A DNA stretch of 64,000 bases, taken from Dictyostelium discoideum (Eukaryota). A program made the translations under genes and the position numbers. This document shows positions 3,941 through 62,448 of this stretch, in pieces; the stretch's first letter is position 1; each line of letters opens with the position of its first letter. The stretch covers positions 832,001 to 896,000 of the forward strand of contig CM000151.3 in assembly GCA_000004695.1 (NCBI GenBank), in the 5' to 3' direction. A model generated the notes under the pieces. The model saw only the letters and a list, made by a program, of their open reading frames with translations. It had not been told where the DNA came from and ran no database searches.

Positions 3941-4225
3941 ACTGACTTTCAACAGTTCTAGCATTTAGAATTAAAATATCAATTTGATATTACTTATAAA
4001 ATTTAATTAACCAATCTTTTAATTTACTTTGTCAGTAATATCAATCGATTCTACTTGAACACCAATATCCAAACATTCTTTTTTACTTCTTCTAATATTT
4101 CAATTTCCTTCCAGTCAAACCAAACCTCTTCCAGGATGACGCACCTGTGATAACTATTGCTTTTGGTGTCGGAAAATTTGTTTTCTTTTTTTATAATTTA
4201 AAAAACTTAATATTGTATAAAATAA
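3941..4225 (-). pseudogene. Decayed, internally deleted relic of SDR exon 1.
   Basis: Collinear nucleotide similarity to 6655-7000 (ACTGACTTTCAACAGTTC.AGCATTT..AATTAAAATATCAATTT, then CACCTGTGATAACTATTGCTTTTGGTGT.GG.AAATTTGTTTTCTTTTTTTATAATTTAAAAAAC). It has gaps and no intact ORF. Confidence 0.5.
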
Positions 4226-4348
4226 AATATAAACAAATGAATTCAAAAATAATTTTTTTATTTTTAAATAATGAATTTAATTTTTACAGTTTATTGAATT
4301 ATTTTTAGTTTTTGTTTTATATCTATTAATTTAAATAATTTTACAGTT

Positions 4349-4837: not shown

Positions 4838-5041
4838 AACTATCAATTAGGAAATAATGTGTTAGTGGGGGTAAATATTGTGTGTTAATTAATCAACCGA
4901 ATCTACCGAAGTTTTTATATGTATAAACTATTGTGTTAGTTCTTCATATAAATTTTTTTTTTTAAAATTTATATTGTTTCAGTTTAATTGTTCAAACACA
5001 CAATTAACCCCACATTAACACATTATTTCCTATTTGATAGT
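4838..5041. promoter_or_regulatory. Bidirectional intergenic palindrome between divergent hssl copies D and E.
   Basis: Arms are about 4838-4893 and 4984-5041 (GTGTTAGTGGGGGTAAATATTGTGTG and CACACAATTAACCCCACATTAACAC). Same spacer as the B/C unit. Confidence 0.6.
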
Positions 5042-5871: not shown

Positions 5872-7063
5872 TTATTTATTATGAGTCTTAATTTTTTGAG
5901 AATTTAAATTTTTAACTGATGAGGAGGGACAATTTTCTCTTTTTGATTCATTTGTAGAATATCGAGAGTGATGAGAATAATGAGTTACTGGTTTCCTATA
6001 GTCTGGATATTTTGCAAGAGAATTTATAATAAAATTAGTGGCATCTCTTAAAGTTGGTGGAATTGTGGCAAAGAAATGAGATATACAATAAACTAAAGGT
6101 GGGCATGAAATTATTGCATCATTTCTACTAATACCATCTACAATGTATTTTGAAGCTTTGTCAGTTGTTATAGGTAGTAACATTGGTATATCTTTATAAT
6201 CCAAAGAATCAACTAATGGAGTATAAACAAAACCTGGTATTATTACTGAAACGCCAACACCTCTTGATGCTAAACCATTTCTAAGTATTAACCCAAATGA
6301 TTTTAGGTAACCTTTACTTGATGAATATCCTGCCATTGTATAATCAAAATATGGTGTAATACTTGACATCAAAACCAATTGACCAGATCCTCTTGATTCA
6401 AAGATTGGTACCATTGGTAAAACTGTATTCAAGGTTCCAATTACCTATAATAAATAATTTATTAATTAGTTTTAAAAGAATATCATTACTTTTTATATTT
6501 TTAAAATTATTTAAGATATTACATTTGTGTTTGTAACTGTTAATATTCTTTCAGTAAAATCTAATTCTTTTGGTAACATTGCTGGAATTTTTTTTTTAAA
6601 TATAAATAAATATATTAAGAAAACCAATTTTTTTTTTTTTAAAAAAGTAATTATACTGACTTTCAACAGTTCCAGCATTTGCAATTAAAATATCAATTTT
6701 ATATTTATTATCAAATTTAATTAACCAATCATATAATTTTTCTTTGTCAGTGACATCAATTGATTCAATTTCTACTTGAACACCAAGATCCAAACATTCT
6801 TTTTGAATTTCTTCTAATTTTTCAATGTTTCTTCCAGTTAAACCTAAAACCAAAGAATTATTGGTTTTTCTTTTTGCATATTCAAGTGCTATTCCTCTAC
6901 CAATACCAGATGATGCACCCGTGATAACTATTGCTTTTGGTGTTGGGAAATTTGTTTTCTTTTTTTTATAATTTAAAAAACCTAATATAGGATAAAATAT
7001 TAAAAGAATCATTGAACCAATTATATTGGTCAACAATAAAGATATATCAGTTAGCACTGCCAT
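5872..7063 (-). CDS. Short-chain dehydrogenase/reductase (classical SDR, N-terminal membrane anchor), paralogue 1. Exons 6661..7063, 6523..6581 and 5872..6444.
   Basis: Exon 1 carries a TM helix plus the Rossmann motif ITGASSGIGRGIALEYAKR and IANAG, with a GTCAGT donor. The 59-nt middle exon (acceptor TTCCAG) encodes MLPKELDFTERILTVTNTN, with a GTAATA donor. Exon 3 (acceptor TTATAG) encodes VIGTLNTVLPMVPIFESRGSGQLVLMSS...YSSSKGYLKSF, the catalytic S..YxxxK. Frame is continuous across both junctions, giving 344 aa. Confidence 0.7.
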
Positions 7064-28065: not shown

Positions 28066-33156
<5,091 letters not shown>

Positions 33157-40357: not shown

Positions 40358-40718
40358 TTATTTCTTTTTATTTGTTGTTGAAGTTGTGGTTTGTTTTTTT
40401 CTTGCAGAAGATTGATCATTTATTGTTTTTTGAAGTTTTTCATGAGCAACAACATTCTTTTTAGCATCACCATGTTGTTTGAACCAATCAGCTCTAGCTT
40501 GAGCTTTTGCTTTTTCACCACATCCATGAATTTCATAGAGTGCATGTTGAGTACAATATTTATGAGTACAAAATTGACAAATTCTTCCTAAAATTTCAAC
40601 ATTTTTCCCACAACCTTTCATACCACAAATTCTTAAATCAACTTCTCTTAATTCAATTGCTTCAAATTCTTTTAATAATTCGTCAGCAGATTTCTTATCA
40701 ACAGATTTCTTTTTAGTA

Positions 40719-40752
<34 letters not shown>

Positions 40753-43432
40753 TTGGTTTTTTTGCTTTCTTTTTCTTTTTCTTTGTTTTATTTGTAGAAT
40801 TTGTTGTTGTTTTTGTTGTTGTACCATCATTTTCTTTTTGTTCATCTTCATCATTTTCTTCATCTTCATCTTCATCTTGTTCATCTTCATCATTATCATT
40901 TTCATGATTTTTATCAGATTTTTTAATTTTCTTTGAAATTGTTATTACTCTATTTTCACCTTCACCAACTGATTGATGATTTAATTTATTTTTTTCAGCT
41001 AATTCATGAACAACCAATCTTTCAAAAGATGATAATGTTGAAGGAAAACTATGAGATTCCATTGAAGTTTTCATAAATGTATTAACGATTGATTCTAATT
41101 GTAATCTTAATTTTTCTTTTTCTTCTTGTTTCTCTAAATCATCTTTATTTTTTTTCTTTTCTTTTTCTTCAATACTTTTTTTATTCTTTTTATCTTTTAA
41201 CATTTCAATTTTTGATTTTTTATTTGAATCATTATTTGTATTAGTTGTAGTGGTGGTGGTGGTGGTTGTTGAATTATTATTATTATCATCTTTATTTAAA
41301 CTAATATCCCAATTATCAGTATCACTTGGTAAGAATTCATCTTCAATATATTCTAAAGCCGATCTAAATAAACCATTTAATTTAAAATAATCAACCATAC
41401 GTTTTAAAGGTTCATGAGAAGAGATTGTATCAGTATCACAAACTACAACTACATGTTTTCTAGCACGAGTTATAGCAACATTTGTTCTTCTATCTTCAGT
41501 AAGGAAACCAACTTTATGTGGAGCATCAGTATTTGAACGTACCATTGAAATGATGATTACATCTTTTTCTCTACCTTGGAAACCATCTACTGTACCAATT
41601 TCCATTGATGAATATTTTTTAGAGAGATAAGATTTTAAGAGTTTAACTTGACCATTGTATGGAGTGATTACACCGATATCATTTGGTTTTACACCACATT
41701 CTATTAATTTTTCAATATGTCTTTTTACAACGATAACCTCACCATTATTAAATTTTGATTCACCTTCATCATCTTGACTTTCTTCCATATCACAACCACT
41801 TGTATCAATCATTAAAAGAGGACAAGTTGTTGTTAAGGTATTTCTAATTTTTGGTGAATCACCAGTCACCAATAGATGATTTGAAACTGATTTATCAGCA
41901 ATCATTTTTGAATTATAAAATTCCATTGAAGACCAATCCATAATTTTATGATTCATACGATATTGAACATTTAAAAGACGTGAAACTTGATCACCATATT
42001 GTTTAATGATACGCTCGAATAGGGTAATTGATAAACCCATTTTAGCGGCTTCCATTGAATGAATGGTTGGTGGTAATTGTTGATGATCTCCTGCCAACAA
42101 TAGTTTATTACCTTTTTGAATTGGTATCCAACAACTTGCTTCCAATGCTTGAGCACATTCATCTATTACAACCCAGTCAAAATTATCAATACCTTTTAAT
42201 GATGAATCAGATGCACCTGTATTTGTTGAAAGTATTACATTTGAATCGTTTATAACTTGTTGAATTAATGATTTCTCTCTATTCTTTAAATCAATACGTA
42301 ACTCTTTAATAGATGATTGTATAACTCTTCTCTCGGAATGTTGTTTAACTTTTAATAATTGTTTTGATAAACTTTTAATCTCATCTTTAATACCTTTAAT
42401 AATTTGACCACCTTCACTATTCTTTGTTTTATGATCTAATGTATGTTTTAATAATTGTGGTAAAATTCTAGTTGGATGACCAATTCTAGTTGCATTTATT
42501 AAAAAACCATTACAACTACTACTATTTGAATATTCTAATAATTTCTCCAACATATTATCAACAGATAAATTAGATGGACCACAAGCTAATACTTTTTTAC
42601 CAGATTTAATTAATTGGACAATGAATTCAACAACGGTTGTAGTTTTACCAGTACCAGGTGGACCATGAATACATGCTACATCATTTGATGATAATGAAAA
42701 TAATATTGCTTCTTTTTGTGATTGATTTAAACCTTTATTTATTAATTGTTGTTCAAATTTCTCTTTATTAATTTGTTGAAAATAACTATTATTATTTGAT
42801 GGTTGATATCCATCATTTAATAATAAATTGATTAATGAATTCTCGCTATTACCAGTTCTTTTATTTACATTTAATTTTAATTTATCTAATGATTCTCTAA
42901 TTTTCTTATAGGTTACATCATTTGCTAATTTATCGATTGAATATAATGTTTGAAAATATTCATCCAACATTGGTCTATTATTTGGATCACTATCTTCGTA
43001 ATTATCATCGAATGCAATAACTATCTTTCTAGAATCAACTTTATAAACTACACCTTTAAAATAATGATTTGTACCTGGTTTTGATTTTGATGGTCTAATA
43101 CCTACTATATCACCATTTGAAATTTTATGTGGTGGTAAATCAAAATTATCATCTTCATCATCACCATCACTATCTTTATCATTATTTTGCTTTTTATTAT
43201 TATTATTATTGTTTGATCCACCATTATCAACAAACGATGCTCTTGCAAGTTTTATTAAAATTCTACCTGATAAACCTGTTGAAAAATTTAAAATCTTAAC
43301 TTTATTAATTGTAACACCTTTTAATTCTAATTCTTTATTTGATAATGTTGCAAAGTTTTCAATTGCTTCATTAACTTCTGATTCTTTTTCAATATCTAAT
43401 AATTCTAATGTTTTTTTAATATAATTTTCCAT
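40358..43432 (-). CDS. ighmbp2: IGHMBP2/SMUBP-2-type superfamily-1 helicase (1024 aa) with a C-terminal R3H-like region and an AN1-type zinc finger.
   Basis: Walker A is IHGPPGTGKTTTVVEFI. Also DECAQALEASCWIP, LLAGDHQQLPPTI, VDGFQGREKDVIIISMVRSN and VAITRARKHVVVVCD. The C-terminus CGMKGCGKNVEILGRICQFCTHKYCTQHALYEIHGCG matches the AN1 pattern. The N-terminus MENYIKKTLELLDIEKESE resembles IGHMBP2. Confidence 0.85.
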
Positions 43433-57794: not shown

Positions 57795-58517
57795 TTTTAT
57801 AATATTTTATTAAGTATAAATTTATACATTTATTGATTTTTGATATAAGAGGAAAAAATGGTAATGATAATAATAAAGGAGAAAATAAAAATAAAAATAA
57901 AAATAAAAATAATATTAAAAAAAAAAATAAAAAAAAAATAAAATTAAAAAAATAAAAATAATTTTGATAAAAAAAACGAAAAAAAAACTTTGAAAATTTT
58001 TGAGAAAAAAAAAAAATAAAAATAAAAAATAAAGGGGGTGTCTGAACACAACTCTTTAAATTTAAAAAAAAAAATAATAAAATCTCTATATTTTATTTTT
58101 AATAATAATTTATTTTACTGCTGTGTTTATTTTTAATTTTAAAATATTTTGTTTTTATTTTTAATTATTATTTTTTTTTGTAAAAATGTATATTAAAAAA
58201 ATGATTAAGAAAAAAAAAAAAAATCAAAAAATCATAAAATAATGGTTTATTTAATAAATATATATATATATATTTAATTATATTAAATATCGTAAAATGA
58301 GATGAATGAACTTCTTTTTTTTTTATTTTATTTTTTTTTTTTATTTGTTTTTTTTTTTTTTAACGACAAAGAAAAAAAATGAAAATTTTCAATTTTTTTA
58401 TTTTTTTTTATTTTTTTTTTTTTTTATTTTTTTTTGTTTTTTTTTTTTTTTTTTTTTTTTTTTTTCATTTAAATCATATCATATTACTCCACAAATATAA
58501 TATTATAAATTTCGATA

Positions 58518-58966
58518 ATGCAAACCAGTGAATGTAAAGTTAAAGGTCCAATCCAAGAAGGTTGTGCCTCTGGATGTGAAAAAAGCTGGAGTGCCTACCA
58601 AGCATGTTCAGGTCGTGTTGCCAAATTAGAGCATGACGAAAAAGCAAACTGTTTAGGTCAATTTTTAGAACATGTTCAATGTATTGATAAATGTGTATGT
58701 ATTTTATATCCTTTTTTTTATTTTTTTTTGTTTTTTTTTTTTTTTAATTAAAAAAATTAAAAAACTTTATTTTTTCATTTTTTCTTTTAATTGTTTTGTT
58801 TTGCGTGTGTGTTTTTTTTATTTTTTATTTTTTTTTTTTTGTGTTTCGATTTGGTAAAAATGTTTTTATTTTATTTTTATTTTTATTTTATTTGGTTATT
58901 CAAATAATTAAATTCGTTTTGTAAAAACAAAAATAGAATTTCTTCATTTATGGTATTGTTACAGTT

Positions 58967-59013
<47 letters not shown>

Positions 59014-59041
59014 TTGCCACCATTGCCACCACTTAGTATCA

Positions 59042-59130
<89 letters not shown>

Positions 59131-59375
59131 TTTGATTATTATGAATAATGGTAGCAGCATTGTTTGTAGTATTATTACTACTAATTTTAAATTTAAATAA
59201 TGAAACTTTTAATAATATTATTGCAACAATTATTATAATATCAAAATAATGATCATAAGCAGAAAGATTATTGCTATCATCCATTTTATTTGTTTATTTA
59301 TTTTATATTTATATGATATTCAGATTTGTTATTTTTATTACTATAATAATTTAAATTTAAATTTTTAAATTATTT

Positions 59376-59412
<37 letters not shown>

Positions 59413-59898
59413 ATAAAATAAAATAAAATAATATAAAATAATAAAAAAAAATAAAATAATATAAAATAAAATAAAATAAATAAAAATTAAATTAAATTAA
59501 GGAAGATACATAAAAGACGATGATTAAAAATTGTGGATAAAAAATTATAATCAAAGGTTATAATATTTAAATCAAAAGTGTGTGTGTAAGCATGTACAAT
59601 AGTTGGTTAAAAGATATTATTGGTAGTTGATTGCTTGTTCCTTGTTGATATTATTATTATTTTTATTGTTATTGTTATTGCTATTTATTTTATTATTACT
59701 GTAGTTTTATTTTATTATTATATTATTATTATTTTTTTTTTTTATAATTTTTATTTTTTTTTTTTTATTTGTTTTTTATTTGTTTTTTTATTATTATAAT
59801 TTTTTAAACATTTTACTAATCATAACTTTACTTTTTCAATTACTTTTTTTTTTTTTTTTTTTTAGGTTGGACCAAAATTATTTGCTCAATTAAAGTAA
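58518..59898 (+). CDS. Cytochrome b-c1 complex hinge subunit (QCR6/UQCRH-like, about 69 aa). Exons 58518..58694 and 59866..59898.
   Basis: Exon 1 is MQTSECKVKGPIQEGCASGCEKSWSAYQACSGRVAKLEHDEKANCLGQFLEHVQCIDKC|GTATGT. The downstream mini-exon after TTTTTTTAG encodes VGPKLFAQLK*, reproducing the family C-terminus (human [27 protein letters not shown]). The implied intron is about 1.17 kb. Confidence 0.6.
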
Positions 59899-60601
59899 AA
59901 TATATGGCGAATATGTGAAAAATAGTAATAAAAAATAGTAATATAAAAAAAAAAAAAAAAAATTAATAGAGAAAATCCATTATAATAAAAATTTAAAAAA
60001 AAAAATATTTAAAATATATATAAACAAGTATTAGTTAAAGAAGACAACACAATCTCTTTCGTTTTTATTTTTATTATTTTTTTTATTTTTTTTTTATTCC
60101 CAATTTGTTTTTGTTATTTTTTTTTAAAATTTCTACTACAACAATAGTAACGATTAGTAGTAGTAGTGGTGGTAGTAGTGGTAGTGGTAGTAGTGGTAGT
60201 GGTAATATTGGTGGTAGTGGAATTGTTGTTGTGGATGTTAAAAAGGATGATTATGATGATGGTATATTAAATAGCAATACCATAACCACCACTACTTTCA
60301 ATTTTATCAATTCAATTAATATATTTTTTTTTATATCATTTAGTTTGTGTTTCTATGAAATTAATGTTGTGAACTTACAAAAAAAAAAAAAAAAAAAAAA
60401 AAAACATACCTCTATTGATTAGATATTATTATATTTTAGTAAAATAAAATAAAAAAAAAACACACCCACACTAATCAAAAACACATTATTTTTATTGTTT
60501 TTATTTTTATTATTTTTATTATCATTCTCAAATTGTGTACGAACACACTCACTCGTTCTTAAAATTTTCATAATAATAAATTACTTATTAATAATGTGAA
60601 C

Positions 60602-60718
<117 letters not shown>

Positions 60719-62448
60719 GACACTCGCTCTCATTTACCAATCATACATACACACTACCCACACTCACTTACTAACACAAATTCTTCTAGAATAATTATAA
60801 ATTTATAGATACACTAAATTTACCCAAAAATAGTATCTCAATAGAGTAGTGATATAATTTACAAGTTATTACACGTTTGGAGATGGTGGTATTATAGTTG
60901 TCAATATTAATTTTATAAAAAAAAAAAAAAAAAAAAAAAATCTACCACACCCTCCTAATTTACAAAGTGTGTTTAAAGTAGTTTGTATGTGAAGTATCGT
61001 TAAACAACAACACAATAAAATAAAATAAATAGAATCTATTTTTCAATAATTCTTTAGTTTTTTTTTTTTTTTTTATTGTTTTGTAAATTAAATATATTTT
61101 AGTGCTGATAAGTTTAGAAAAATAATAATTTAAATCTTGATTGAATTTTTATTTTATTATTATTATTTTATTTTATTATTTTTATTATTGTTGTTTTTGT
61201 TTTTGTTGTTGGTTTTTTTTTTTTTTGTTTTTTTTTTTTGTTATCAATTTGGTTGTAGTTTTTTTTTTTAATTAATTTAAAAATCCAAGTTTTATTTTGT
61301 TATTTTTGATTTATTAATTAAAGGGTGGCACAAGTTCAAAGTAATGGCAATTTTTAAAATAAAAAAAAAAAAAAAAAAAAAAAAACAAATAAATAAAAAT
61401 CTCATTTTTTGGCAACTAAATTAAAATATGGTTATTAATTAAATTTTAATAAAAAATAAAATTGATAATAAAATCCCAGAATCTCAATTTCAGGTGGCCT
61501 AATATCCCATCCATTTTTTATTTTTATTTTCATAATAATTTATATTTTTATTTTTTTTATTCACTTTTTTATTTAAGAATATGGTTAACTTATTTTATTC
61601 AAAAAAAAAAAAAAAATATAAAATAAAAAAAAAAAATATAAAATAAAAAAAAAAAAAATAAAAATAAAAAGAGTTGAAAAAAGTTAACTTTCTTCAGATT
61701 TTTTAAAAATAAAATTAATTTATTACAAAACAATGGAAATAGATTGAAGTTTTTTTTTTTTTTTTTAATTAATTAATTAATTTTTTAATTATAAAATTTG
61801 TTACCAGTAACTGATTACAATGGAAAGTTGAGTTATGTTAAATATTAACCATCTTTTTACTTTCTTAAATTAAAAATTGTCATTGACACTTTTTTTTTTT
61901 TTTTTTTTTTTTCTTTTTTTTTTTAATATGATATGATACATATAAATTTATATATTTATATATATTCTAAATTTAAGTAATATTAATAATAATAAGATTT
62001 AAATAATTAGTTTTTTGACGTAATAATTCGATAATATAATTCAAATATTTTTATAAATTAAATTTAAAATACAAACTATCTGTTAGTTTTGTAAACTGGA
62101 TTAATGGGTTAAGTTATTTTTTTTGAAAAAAAAATAAAAAAATAAAAATGTTTATAAAATTTGACCCCATGTTAGCATTTTTTTTTGATTTGTTTTTTTT
62201 ATTTTTTTTTTTTATTTTTTTATTTTTATCTTCAAGCAACCTATCTAATAATTAAAATTTTAATTTTATTTTTGATTTTTTTTCTTTTTTTTTTTTTCAA
62301 TTTAATTTTTTTTTTTACACATTCATATGATTCAGATACCATAAAAAGATAAAATTCACACCTTTCATTATCTTTTACAACAAGAAAAGACATTTTTTTT
62401 TAATTAATTTGATTAGATATTTTAAAAAAATTATTTTTTAAATTTTGG

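Follow-up and report, generated by a model that had tools for sequence, protein, structure and literature searches.

A candidate opposite-strand gene for a membrane microprotein in the long intron of the hinge protein gene uqcrh of Dictyostelium discoideum

The hinge protein gene uqcrh of Dictyostelium discoideum, which encodes subunit 6 of complex III, occupies positions 58518-59898 of the stretch of DNA analysed here, which covers 64,000 nucleotides (nt) of contig CM000151.3 (positions 832,001 to 896,000 of the forward strand; assembly GCA_000004695.1) and is called the window below. The 1171-nt intron of this gene contains an open reading frame (ORF) on the opposite strand, at 59039-59284. 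Based on comparisons with other dictyostelids, we consider it probable that the locus combines the known uqcrh gene with a nested, opposite-strand gene of the group-4 species that would encode a single-pass membrane microprotein, and that the presence of this guest explains the size of the intron. We are further inclined, with less assurance, to regard the guest as a real and translated microprotein gene that is specific to group 4, was already present in the intron of uqcrh when D. discoideum and D. purpureum split and has stayed there, and caused the roughly tenfold increase in the length of the intron. The new part is the nested ORF, a candidate protein-coding gene in a heavily used model organism.

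Conservation of the nested open reading frame

The first-pass annotation of this stretch had reported a minus-strand ORF with a polyasparagine (polyN) run inside the intron and had left the choice between a nested gene and an artefact. The ORF is present as described and encodes 81 amino acids, which begin with MDDSNNLSAYDHYFDIIIIVAIILLKVSLFKFK and continue with a variable tail rich in serine, threonine and asparagine, the polyN run, two lysines and the stop codon. Its conserved core comprises 32 codons (59189-59284, minus strand) and consists of a polar N terminus with a Y-D/N-H-Y-F/C-D motif, a hydrophobic segment of 17 residues and a basic end of the form K/R-F. The most hydrophobic window of 17 residues, FDIIIIVAIILLKVSLF, has a mean Kyte-Doolittle value of 2.7-3.15, and the layout of the core is consistent with one membrane helix that follows a short polar N terminus and is itself followed by lysine or arginine. 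The tryptic peptide expected from the ORF, MDDSNNLSAYDHYFDIIIIVAIILLK, is very hydrophobic.

Homologous antisense ORFs were identified in two further group-4 species. In D. firmibasis the ORF lies at 6402-6707 of locus L006 and encodes 101 amino acids starting with MDDSNLSAFDHYFDVIIIVAIILLKVSLFKFN, and in D. purpureum it lies at 6806-6925 of locus L001 and encodes 39 amino acids (MEGNYHVYNHYCDIILVVIVIILKVVIFRFSNYLVVLFK), with a stop at codon 40. The ORFs are on the same strand and at the same central position of the intron in the three species, and all three are located wholly inside the host intron, which spans 1171 nt in D. discoideum (58695-59865 of the window), 1140 nt in D. firmibasis (6178-7317 of L006) and 1400 nt in D. 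purpureum (6184-7583 of L001). The residues M1, N6, H12, Y13, D15, I17, V20, I23, L25, K26, V27, F30 and F32 are invariant among them. After residue 33 the conservation ends, as D. discoideum and D. firmibasis continue with serine-, threonine- and asparagine-rich sequence and polyN and the D. purpureum ORF stops early. The polyN tail corresponds to an (AAT)28 repeat, read on the minus strand, at 59046-59129; the repeat differs in length from species to species and D. purpureum has none, and the tail of D. discoideum and D. firmibasis is a variable and probably neutral extension. A length of at most 100 codons holds for the ORFs of D. discoideum and D. purpureum, and D. firmibasis reaches 101 amino acids only through the polyN repeat.

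Because the length of the ORF is unremarkable, its significance can only come from conservation between species. The (AAT)28 repeat contributes 28 of the 81 codons, other low-complexity ORFs of 59 and 61 amino acids occur in the same intron and homologues were not found in the databases, all of which would fit an ORF that arose by chance in intron DNA rich in A+T and in repeats. However, the syntenic ORF of D. purpureum shares strand and frame, has a conserved start and shows a peptide similarity of 13 standard deviations, and the D. firmibasis ORF is 87% identical, with changes of the synonymous type, amid intron sequence that can barely be aligned. A chance origin is therefore very improbable.

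When D. discoideum and D. firmibasis are aligned, the ORF core stands out with 87% identity from the other parts of the intron, which reach 50-60%. In the first 33 codons the two species differ at one first, one second and eight third codon positions, and their single indel comprises one codon and is in frame. The binomial probability that at least eight of ten differences fall in one given codon position is about 0.003. By the method of Nei and Gojobori, the non-synonymous divergence (dN) of the core is 0.040 and the synonymous divergence (dS) is 0.541, giving a dN/dS of about 0.07. This is indistinguishable from exon 1 of uqcrh, which is 92% identical between the same species and has 2, 2 and 10 differences at the three codon positions, a dN of 0.028 and a dS of 0.393. 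Within the 30-32 conserved codons the frame of the minus-strand ORF is the only one that no stop interrupts in any of the three species, and its ATG is conserved; each of the five other frames has one to six stops in every species. The third-position pattern could also have been owed to the plus-strand frame that shares its third positions with the ORF, and this was rejected, as that frame has two to four stops in each species.

The nested peptides of D. discoideum and D. purpureum gave a local BLOSUM62 score of 83, although the DNA of the core differs at 35 of the 93 aligned positions. For comparison, either intron was shuffled 500 times with its dinucleotides preserved, and the six-frame translations gave mean scores of 32 and 38 and maxima of 47 and 57. 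With natural sequence as control the maximum was 53 for 101 other tiles of the window and 40 for 14 other tiles of the D. purpureum locus. The conservation, the third-position skew and the single open frame in three species clearly favour a nested ORF under selection as protein-coding sequence, and hence a nested gene over an artefact.

Non-coding constraint does exist at this locus, both in a block at 59495-59556 and in the 3' flank of uqcrh, and the conserved part of the ORF is short. The main rival explanation is that the conserved antisense segment is a non-coding element, such as a regulatory RNA of antisense or intronic type, an enhancer or a sequence that acts in the splicing of the long host intron, and that the ORF in it is incidental. 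We regard this as unlikely, given the concentration of the differences in third positions, the in-frame indel and a peptide score beyond that of composition-matched controls in spite of the divergent DNA. In addition, one of the six frames is open in all three species with a conserved ATG, and no match to Rfam was found.

The sequence past the core is not conserved and the ORFs end after 39, 81 and 101 amino acids, which would also fit a larger antisense gene of which the core is the first coding exon and which would overlap uqcrh instead of being strictly nested in it. GT dinucleotides indeed follow the core in D. discoideum (AGTAGTAAT). However, by inspection no donor-like site was seen at a common position in the three species, the minus strand continues downstream in A-rich low-complexity DNA up to exon 1 of uqcrh, and the interval 58695-59038, with 50% identity, contains no other conserved block. 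Such a larger gene is in our judgement quite improbable.

Searches for known relatives of the nested ORF were negative. The exact sequences of 81 and 39 amino acids were found neither among about 15 billion proteins nor in the gene-position index, and a word-index search with the first 52 residues of the ORF returned no protein sharing three words of five residues. HMMER searches with the nested ORF against 1.84 billion representative proteins gave no match at E-values up to 0.001, and searches of Pfam and of PDB sequences, with the ORF as well as with the alignment of the three species, were empty. A scan of 57800-60800 with Rfam at E-values up to 1 detected no RNA family, so that no small nucleolar RNA or other non-coding RNA was found to explain the conserved islands of the intron. 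Metagenome scans with peptide patterns of the nested ORF and with a conserved DNA word of the hinge gene yielded no new loci and only a contig that was already known. In the 8-kilobase loci of Tieghemostelium lacteum, with its short hinge intron, and Heterostelium album and in the intronless contigs L002-L005, described below, the best scores for the nested ORF were at most 49 and within the background; the hinge intron of H. album contained low-complexity ORFs only and no recognisable homologue. A literature search on nested genes in Dictyostelium produced no relevant paper. The nested ORF appears to be unannotated in all three genomes, and it would have been invisible to annotation because it is short and AT-rich, has a polyN repeat after its core and is hidden in an intron.

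Several observations weigh against a nested microprotein gene. The predicted protein is in none of the protein collections searched, no peptide of it was found, and it was called by no annotator or pipeline. The test of codon positions between D. discoideum and D. firmibasis rests on ten differences, and the core has only about 32 codons. The length of the ORF is by itself no more than expected by chance, as a third of it is the AAT repeat, and in D. discoideum conservation does not extend to the C-terminal two thirds. At about 17-18%, the GC content of the ORF is lower than in typical exons of D. discoideum, and the ORF is present in only three related species. Finally, the H. album hinge intron measures 816 nt without a detectable nested homologue; the length of the intron is thus not always explained by the ORF and is not diagnostic alone.

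Surroundings of the nested open reading frame

The ATG of the nested ORF (59284, minus strand) has the context AAAATGG and is preceded by an in-frame TAA four codons upstream. A run of 31 T on the minus strand (59380-59410) lies 96-126 nt upstream of this ATG, inside a segment that is A-rich on the plus strand (59350-59550). The AT skew of the plus strand is +0.42 to +0.54 over 59350-59550, compared to -0.2 to -0.67 elsewhere in the intron, and this flip of the skew resembles the pattern around the hinge gene itself, which is T-rich upstream and A-rich downstream. The T run and the inverted skew hint at a promoter-like composition for a gene on the minus strand.

Additionally, D. discoideum and D. 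firmibasis share a block of 62 nt at 59495-59556 (GGAAGATACATAAAAGACGATGATTAAAAATTGTGGATAAAAAATTATAATCA...) with 92% identity. The block lies 211-272 nt upstream of the nested ATG in D. discoideum and at a similar distance in D. firmibasis, was not recognisable in the D. purpureum locus and had no match in Rfam. It could be a promoter, a 5' untranslated region (UTR) or a regulatory element of the nested gene, or else serve the host intron.

In the three group-4 species the intron would harbour a second, opposite-strand transcription unit with flanking control regions, made up of a T-rich upstream region, the AAAATGG start and a short ORF. The core of this ORF, of 30-32 codons, would encode a polar N terminus, a single transmembrane helix and a basic anchor, an arrangement known from single-pass membrane microproteins. 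A promoter of its own, transcription, translation and membrane insertion of the product are what we infer for the nested ORF. Host and guest may be functionally coupled, either by antisense transcription across the host pre-mRNA or by action of the microprotein at the mitochondrial membrane.

The host gene uqcrh and its intron

The coding sequence of uqcrh starts with the ATG at 58518. Exon 1 contributes 59 codons (58518-58694, plus strand; 38% GC), ending in HVQCIDKC in phase 0, and the coding part of the terminal exon (59866-59898, plus strand) reads GTT GGA CCA AAA TTA TTT GCT CAA TTA AAG TAA, encoding VGPKLFAQLK and the stop codon. The spliced product of 69 amino acids is identical over its full length to the D. 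discoideum AX4 protein XP_001134613.1 (EAS66929.1; UniProt Q1ZXP3; uqcrh, DDB0233077), which is recorded under XP_001134613.1 as ubiquinol-cytochrome-c reductase hinge protein, a name for cytochrome b-c1 subunit 6. It matched the Pfam family UCR_hinge (PF02320) with 56.7 bits, above the curated cut-off of 27.2, over profile positions 6-65 of 65 and thus to the C-terminal end of the domain, compared to 39.3 bits and a match ending at profile position 56 for the unspliced ORF. The cysteine pattern of the helical hairpin and the C-terminal PK(L/I/V)F motif of the family are present as well.

The spliced product aligned end to end with solved chains of bc1 subunit 6, of which 8bel_H ends in ...QCIDKCVAPKLFAKLK at its last residue. 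In the alignment with 9f5x_1I and 8bel_H, the residues C16, C20, C30, C45, C55 and C59 fall on cysteines of these chains and the final PKLFAQLK falls on their C terminus. Like the plant, protist and animal chains of the UCR_hinge family (UQCRH, yeast Qcr6), the window product has the full-length domain, six cysteines and a C-V-x-P-K-L-F-A-x-L-K end; it is a short form of 69 amino acids, as long as the solved chains that match it best, and has no long N-terminal extension. Synteny of the hinge locus is kept across the orthologous loci, with the same upstream gene and the same P450 gene downstream. The phosphopeptide GPIQEGCASGCEK of Q1ZXP3 was reported from mitochondrial phosphoproteomics of D. 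discoideum, in the oxidative phosphorylation section of the table (PMC8584165); its detection by mass spectrometry confirms the expression of exon 1 and does not cover the junction, and the listing in that section hints indirectly that the protein is a physical subunit of mitochondrial complex III. The gene at 58518-59898 is uqcrh, already known to encode subunit 6 of complex III, and its model matches the reference annotation and contains nothing new. The protein does not differ from Q1ZXP3, and the gene stands out for the length of its intron alone.

The intron, from GTATGT to TTTTAG, has a GC content of 12.6%; the composition of the whole window is 21% GC. The donor GTATGT occupies 58695-58700 and the acceptor AG 59864-59865. 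The first-pass annotation had recognised this donor correctly and placed it at 58694, one base before GTATGT begins. It had also noted long T tracts, and these were found at 58731-58745 (T15), at 58968-59007 (T40, which reads as A40 on the minus strand and closely follows the stop codon of the nested ORF) and at 59844-59863 (T20, the polypyrimidine tract directly before the acceptor AG). A TACTAAT motif on the plus strand at 59814-59820, about 46 nt upstream of the acceptor, resembles a branch site, and ACTAAT occurs at the equivalent place before the acceptor in D. firmibasis and D. purpureum; we take TACTAAT to be the putative branch site. The intron would be removed through the GTATGT donor, this branch-like site, the T20 tract and the TAG acceptor. 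This intron, the only one of the gene, breaks the reading frame immediately behind the last conserved cysteine (CIDKC|VGPKLFAQLK), and the last ten codons are carried by the 3'-terminal exon.

When the 47 AG sites in 58695-60400 were read as phase-0 acceptors, a tail like that of the hinge protein was obtained from 59866 alone, and PKLFA occurs once in the six-frame translation of the window. The view that splicing to 59866 is the only route to VGPKLFAQLK was borne out by these results, by the identity of the product with Q1ZXP3 and by the retention of the junction in relatives. Of the same annotation's 33-nt terminal mini-exon only the 33-nt coding part could be kept. The exon itself is a normal terminal exon that runs on into a conserved 3' flank (59899-60075, plus strand), a probable 3' UTR with AATAAA at 59927 and 59984. 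The terminal coding segment is 94% identical between D. discoideum and D. firmibasis and has a homologous exon in five dictyostelids. The 3' flank is 89% identical between the same two species, compared to 50-60% in the neighbouring non-coding DNA, and is probably a constrained 3' UTR.

In the hinge region of D. firmibasis (6001-7350 of L006) the deposited model, KAK5574738.1, uses a nearer acceptor and ends after 66 amino acids in ...CLHSKMKR, with loss of the conserved C terminus; its true terminal coding exon (VGPKLFAQLK) lies at 7318-7350 of L006, 1140 nt past the donor. The deposited model of H. album PN500 (region 4001-5020 of L010) likewise takes a nearer acceptor and has 65 amino acids with a non-homologous tail (...CNYKMVVLV), and the true terminal coding exon (AAPKIFAQLK) is found at 4988-5020 of locus L010, 816 nt past the donor. 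The automatic models of both species were in this way shown to miss the true terminal exon.

An obsolete D. discoideum entry of 105 amino acids, UPI00004E3BBE, in the same 90% cluster as the hinge protein, splices from AA|GTAAAA in exon 2 into a glycine- and serine-rich stretch near 60168. Together with KAK5574738.1 this could be taken to mean that the hinge mRNA is made without the acceptor at 59866, by use of a nearer acceptor, by retention of the intron (giving a product of 77 amino acids) or by reading on through exon 2. However, the D. discoideum equivalent of the nearer acceptor (58937) gives a junk tail of 87 amino acids, and the D. firmibasis stop is TAG without a GT donor, so that the 105-residue extension is not conserved. 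The VGPKLFAQLK exon is conserved in five species along with its splice signals and makes the Pfam domain complete. We find such alternative mRNAs barely credible, and the models with 105-residue read-on, with a 66-residue product from the nearer acceptor and with intron retention were all rejected. A nearer acceptor, which the first-pass annotation had named as the finding that would count against its splice, is used in the automatic D. firmibasis model, and that acceptor is not conserved in D. discoideum.

The introns of D. discoideum have a mean length of 132.55 nt and a median of 104 nt genome-wide, and those of D. purpureum a median of 78 nt (PMC4683709). With 1171 nt the uqcrh intron is about nine times the mean and about eleven times the median of D. 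discoideum by these values, against which the earlier estimate of about ten times the typical length was fair. In five species this ancient intron interrupts the gene at the identical phase-0 site, after GAT AAA TGT. Besides the three group-4 species these are T. lacteum, with an intron of 160 nt (4178-4337 of locus L009), and H. album, with one of 816 nt and 24% GC (4172-4987 of L010). The annotated hinge gene of D. purpureum spans 1617 nt for 71 amino acids. In the three group-4 species its length is 8 to 18 times that of a usual intron, and we propose that this is because a second, opposite-strand transcription unit lies inside it.

A hinge protein of 69 amino acids, 72% identical and encoded without an intron, was found on the four short contigs L002-L005 (three JGI metagenome records, 3300028160, 3300028163 and 3300028164, and one Logan assembly, SRR8446436). 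All of these contigs begin 80-110 nt upstream of the ATG and extend about 0.65-1 kilobase past the stop codon with no long ORF, and they represent either complementary DNA or an intron-loss lineage of a dictyostelid. About 70 nt of the 3' flank of uqcrh align with them (74.5% identity, exon 2 included).

Comparison with known systems and other observations

Single-pass membrane microproteins from small ORFs (smORFs) are known, such as peptides of the sarcolipin and phospholamban type, yeast Pmp1 and Pmp2, and mitoregulin. The nested ORF resembles these in size class, in its single hydrophobic helix, short polar N terminus and basic residues, and in its escape from annotation. Unlike them, it was seen only in group-4 dictyostelids and showed no relation in sequence to any Pfam family, PDB chain or member of the 1.84 billion representatives.

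Genes nested on the opposite strand are known as well: Pcp in Gart of Drosophila, F8A in intron 22 of human F8, and OMG, EVI2A and EVI2B in an intron of NF1. The candidate described here likewise has a complete ORF with its own start and stop and an apparent upstream region, is antisense within one intron and is conserved together with its host. In contrast to these cases, the host genome of Dictyostelium is very compact, with the median intron of 104 nt (PMC4683709), and the guest ORF is of microprotein size, with 39-101 amino acids. The nested gene would account in concrete terms for the outlying length of this intron, in a genome whose introns nearly all measure about 100 nt. It could also serve as a simple test case for how antisense transcription that crosses a host intron is tolerated when the genome is compact, and for how many conserved smORFs are still unannotated in Dictyostelium.

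Downstream of uqcrh a glycine- and serine-rich low-complexity ORF is present at 60105-60422 (plus strand), which the obsolete 105-residue entry UPI00004E3BBE had fused to the hinge gene. It is poorly conserved in D. firmibasis, with 57% identity over 60076-60198. The 69-residue hinge product and a 508-residue ORF at 28509-30035 were absent from the gene-position index. Elsewhere in the window, an ORF of 1024 amino acids at 40358-43432 (minus strand) encodes a helicase with SMUBP-2, AAA_11, AAA_12, R3H and zf-AN1 features, and an identical sequence is present in assembly GCA_054883475.1 (JBTAPE010000001.1, 890183-893457).

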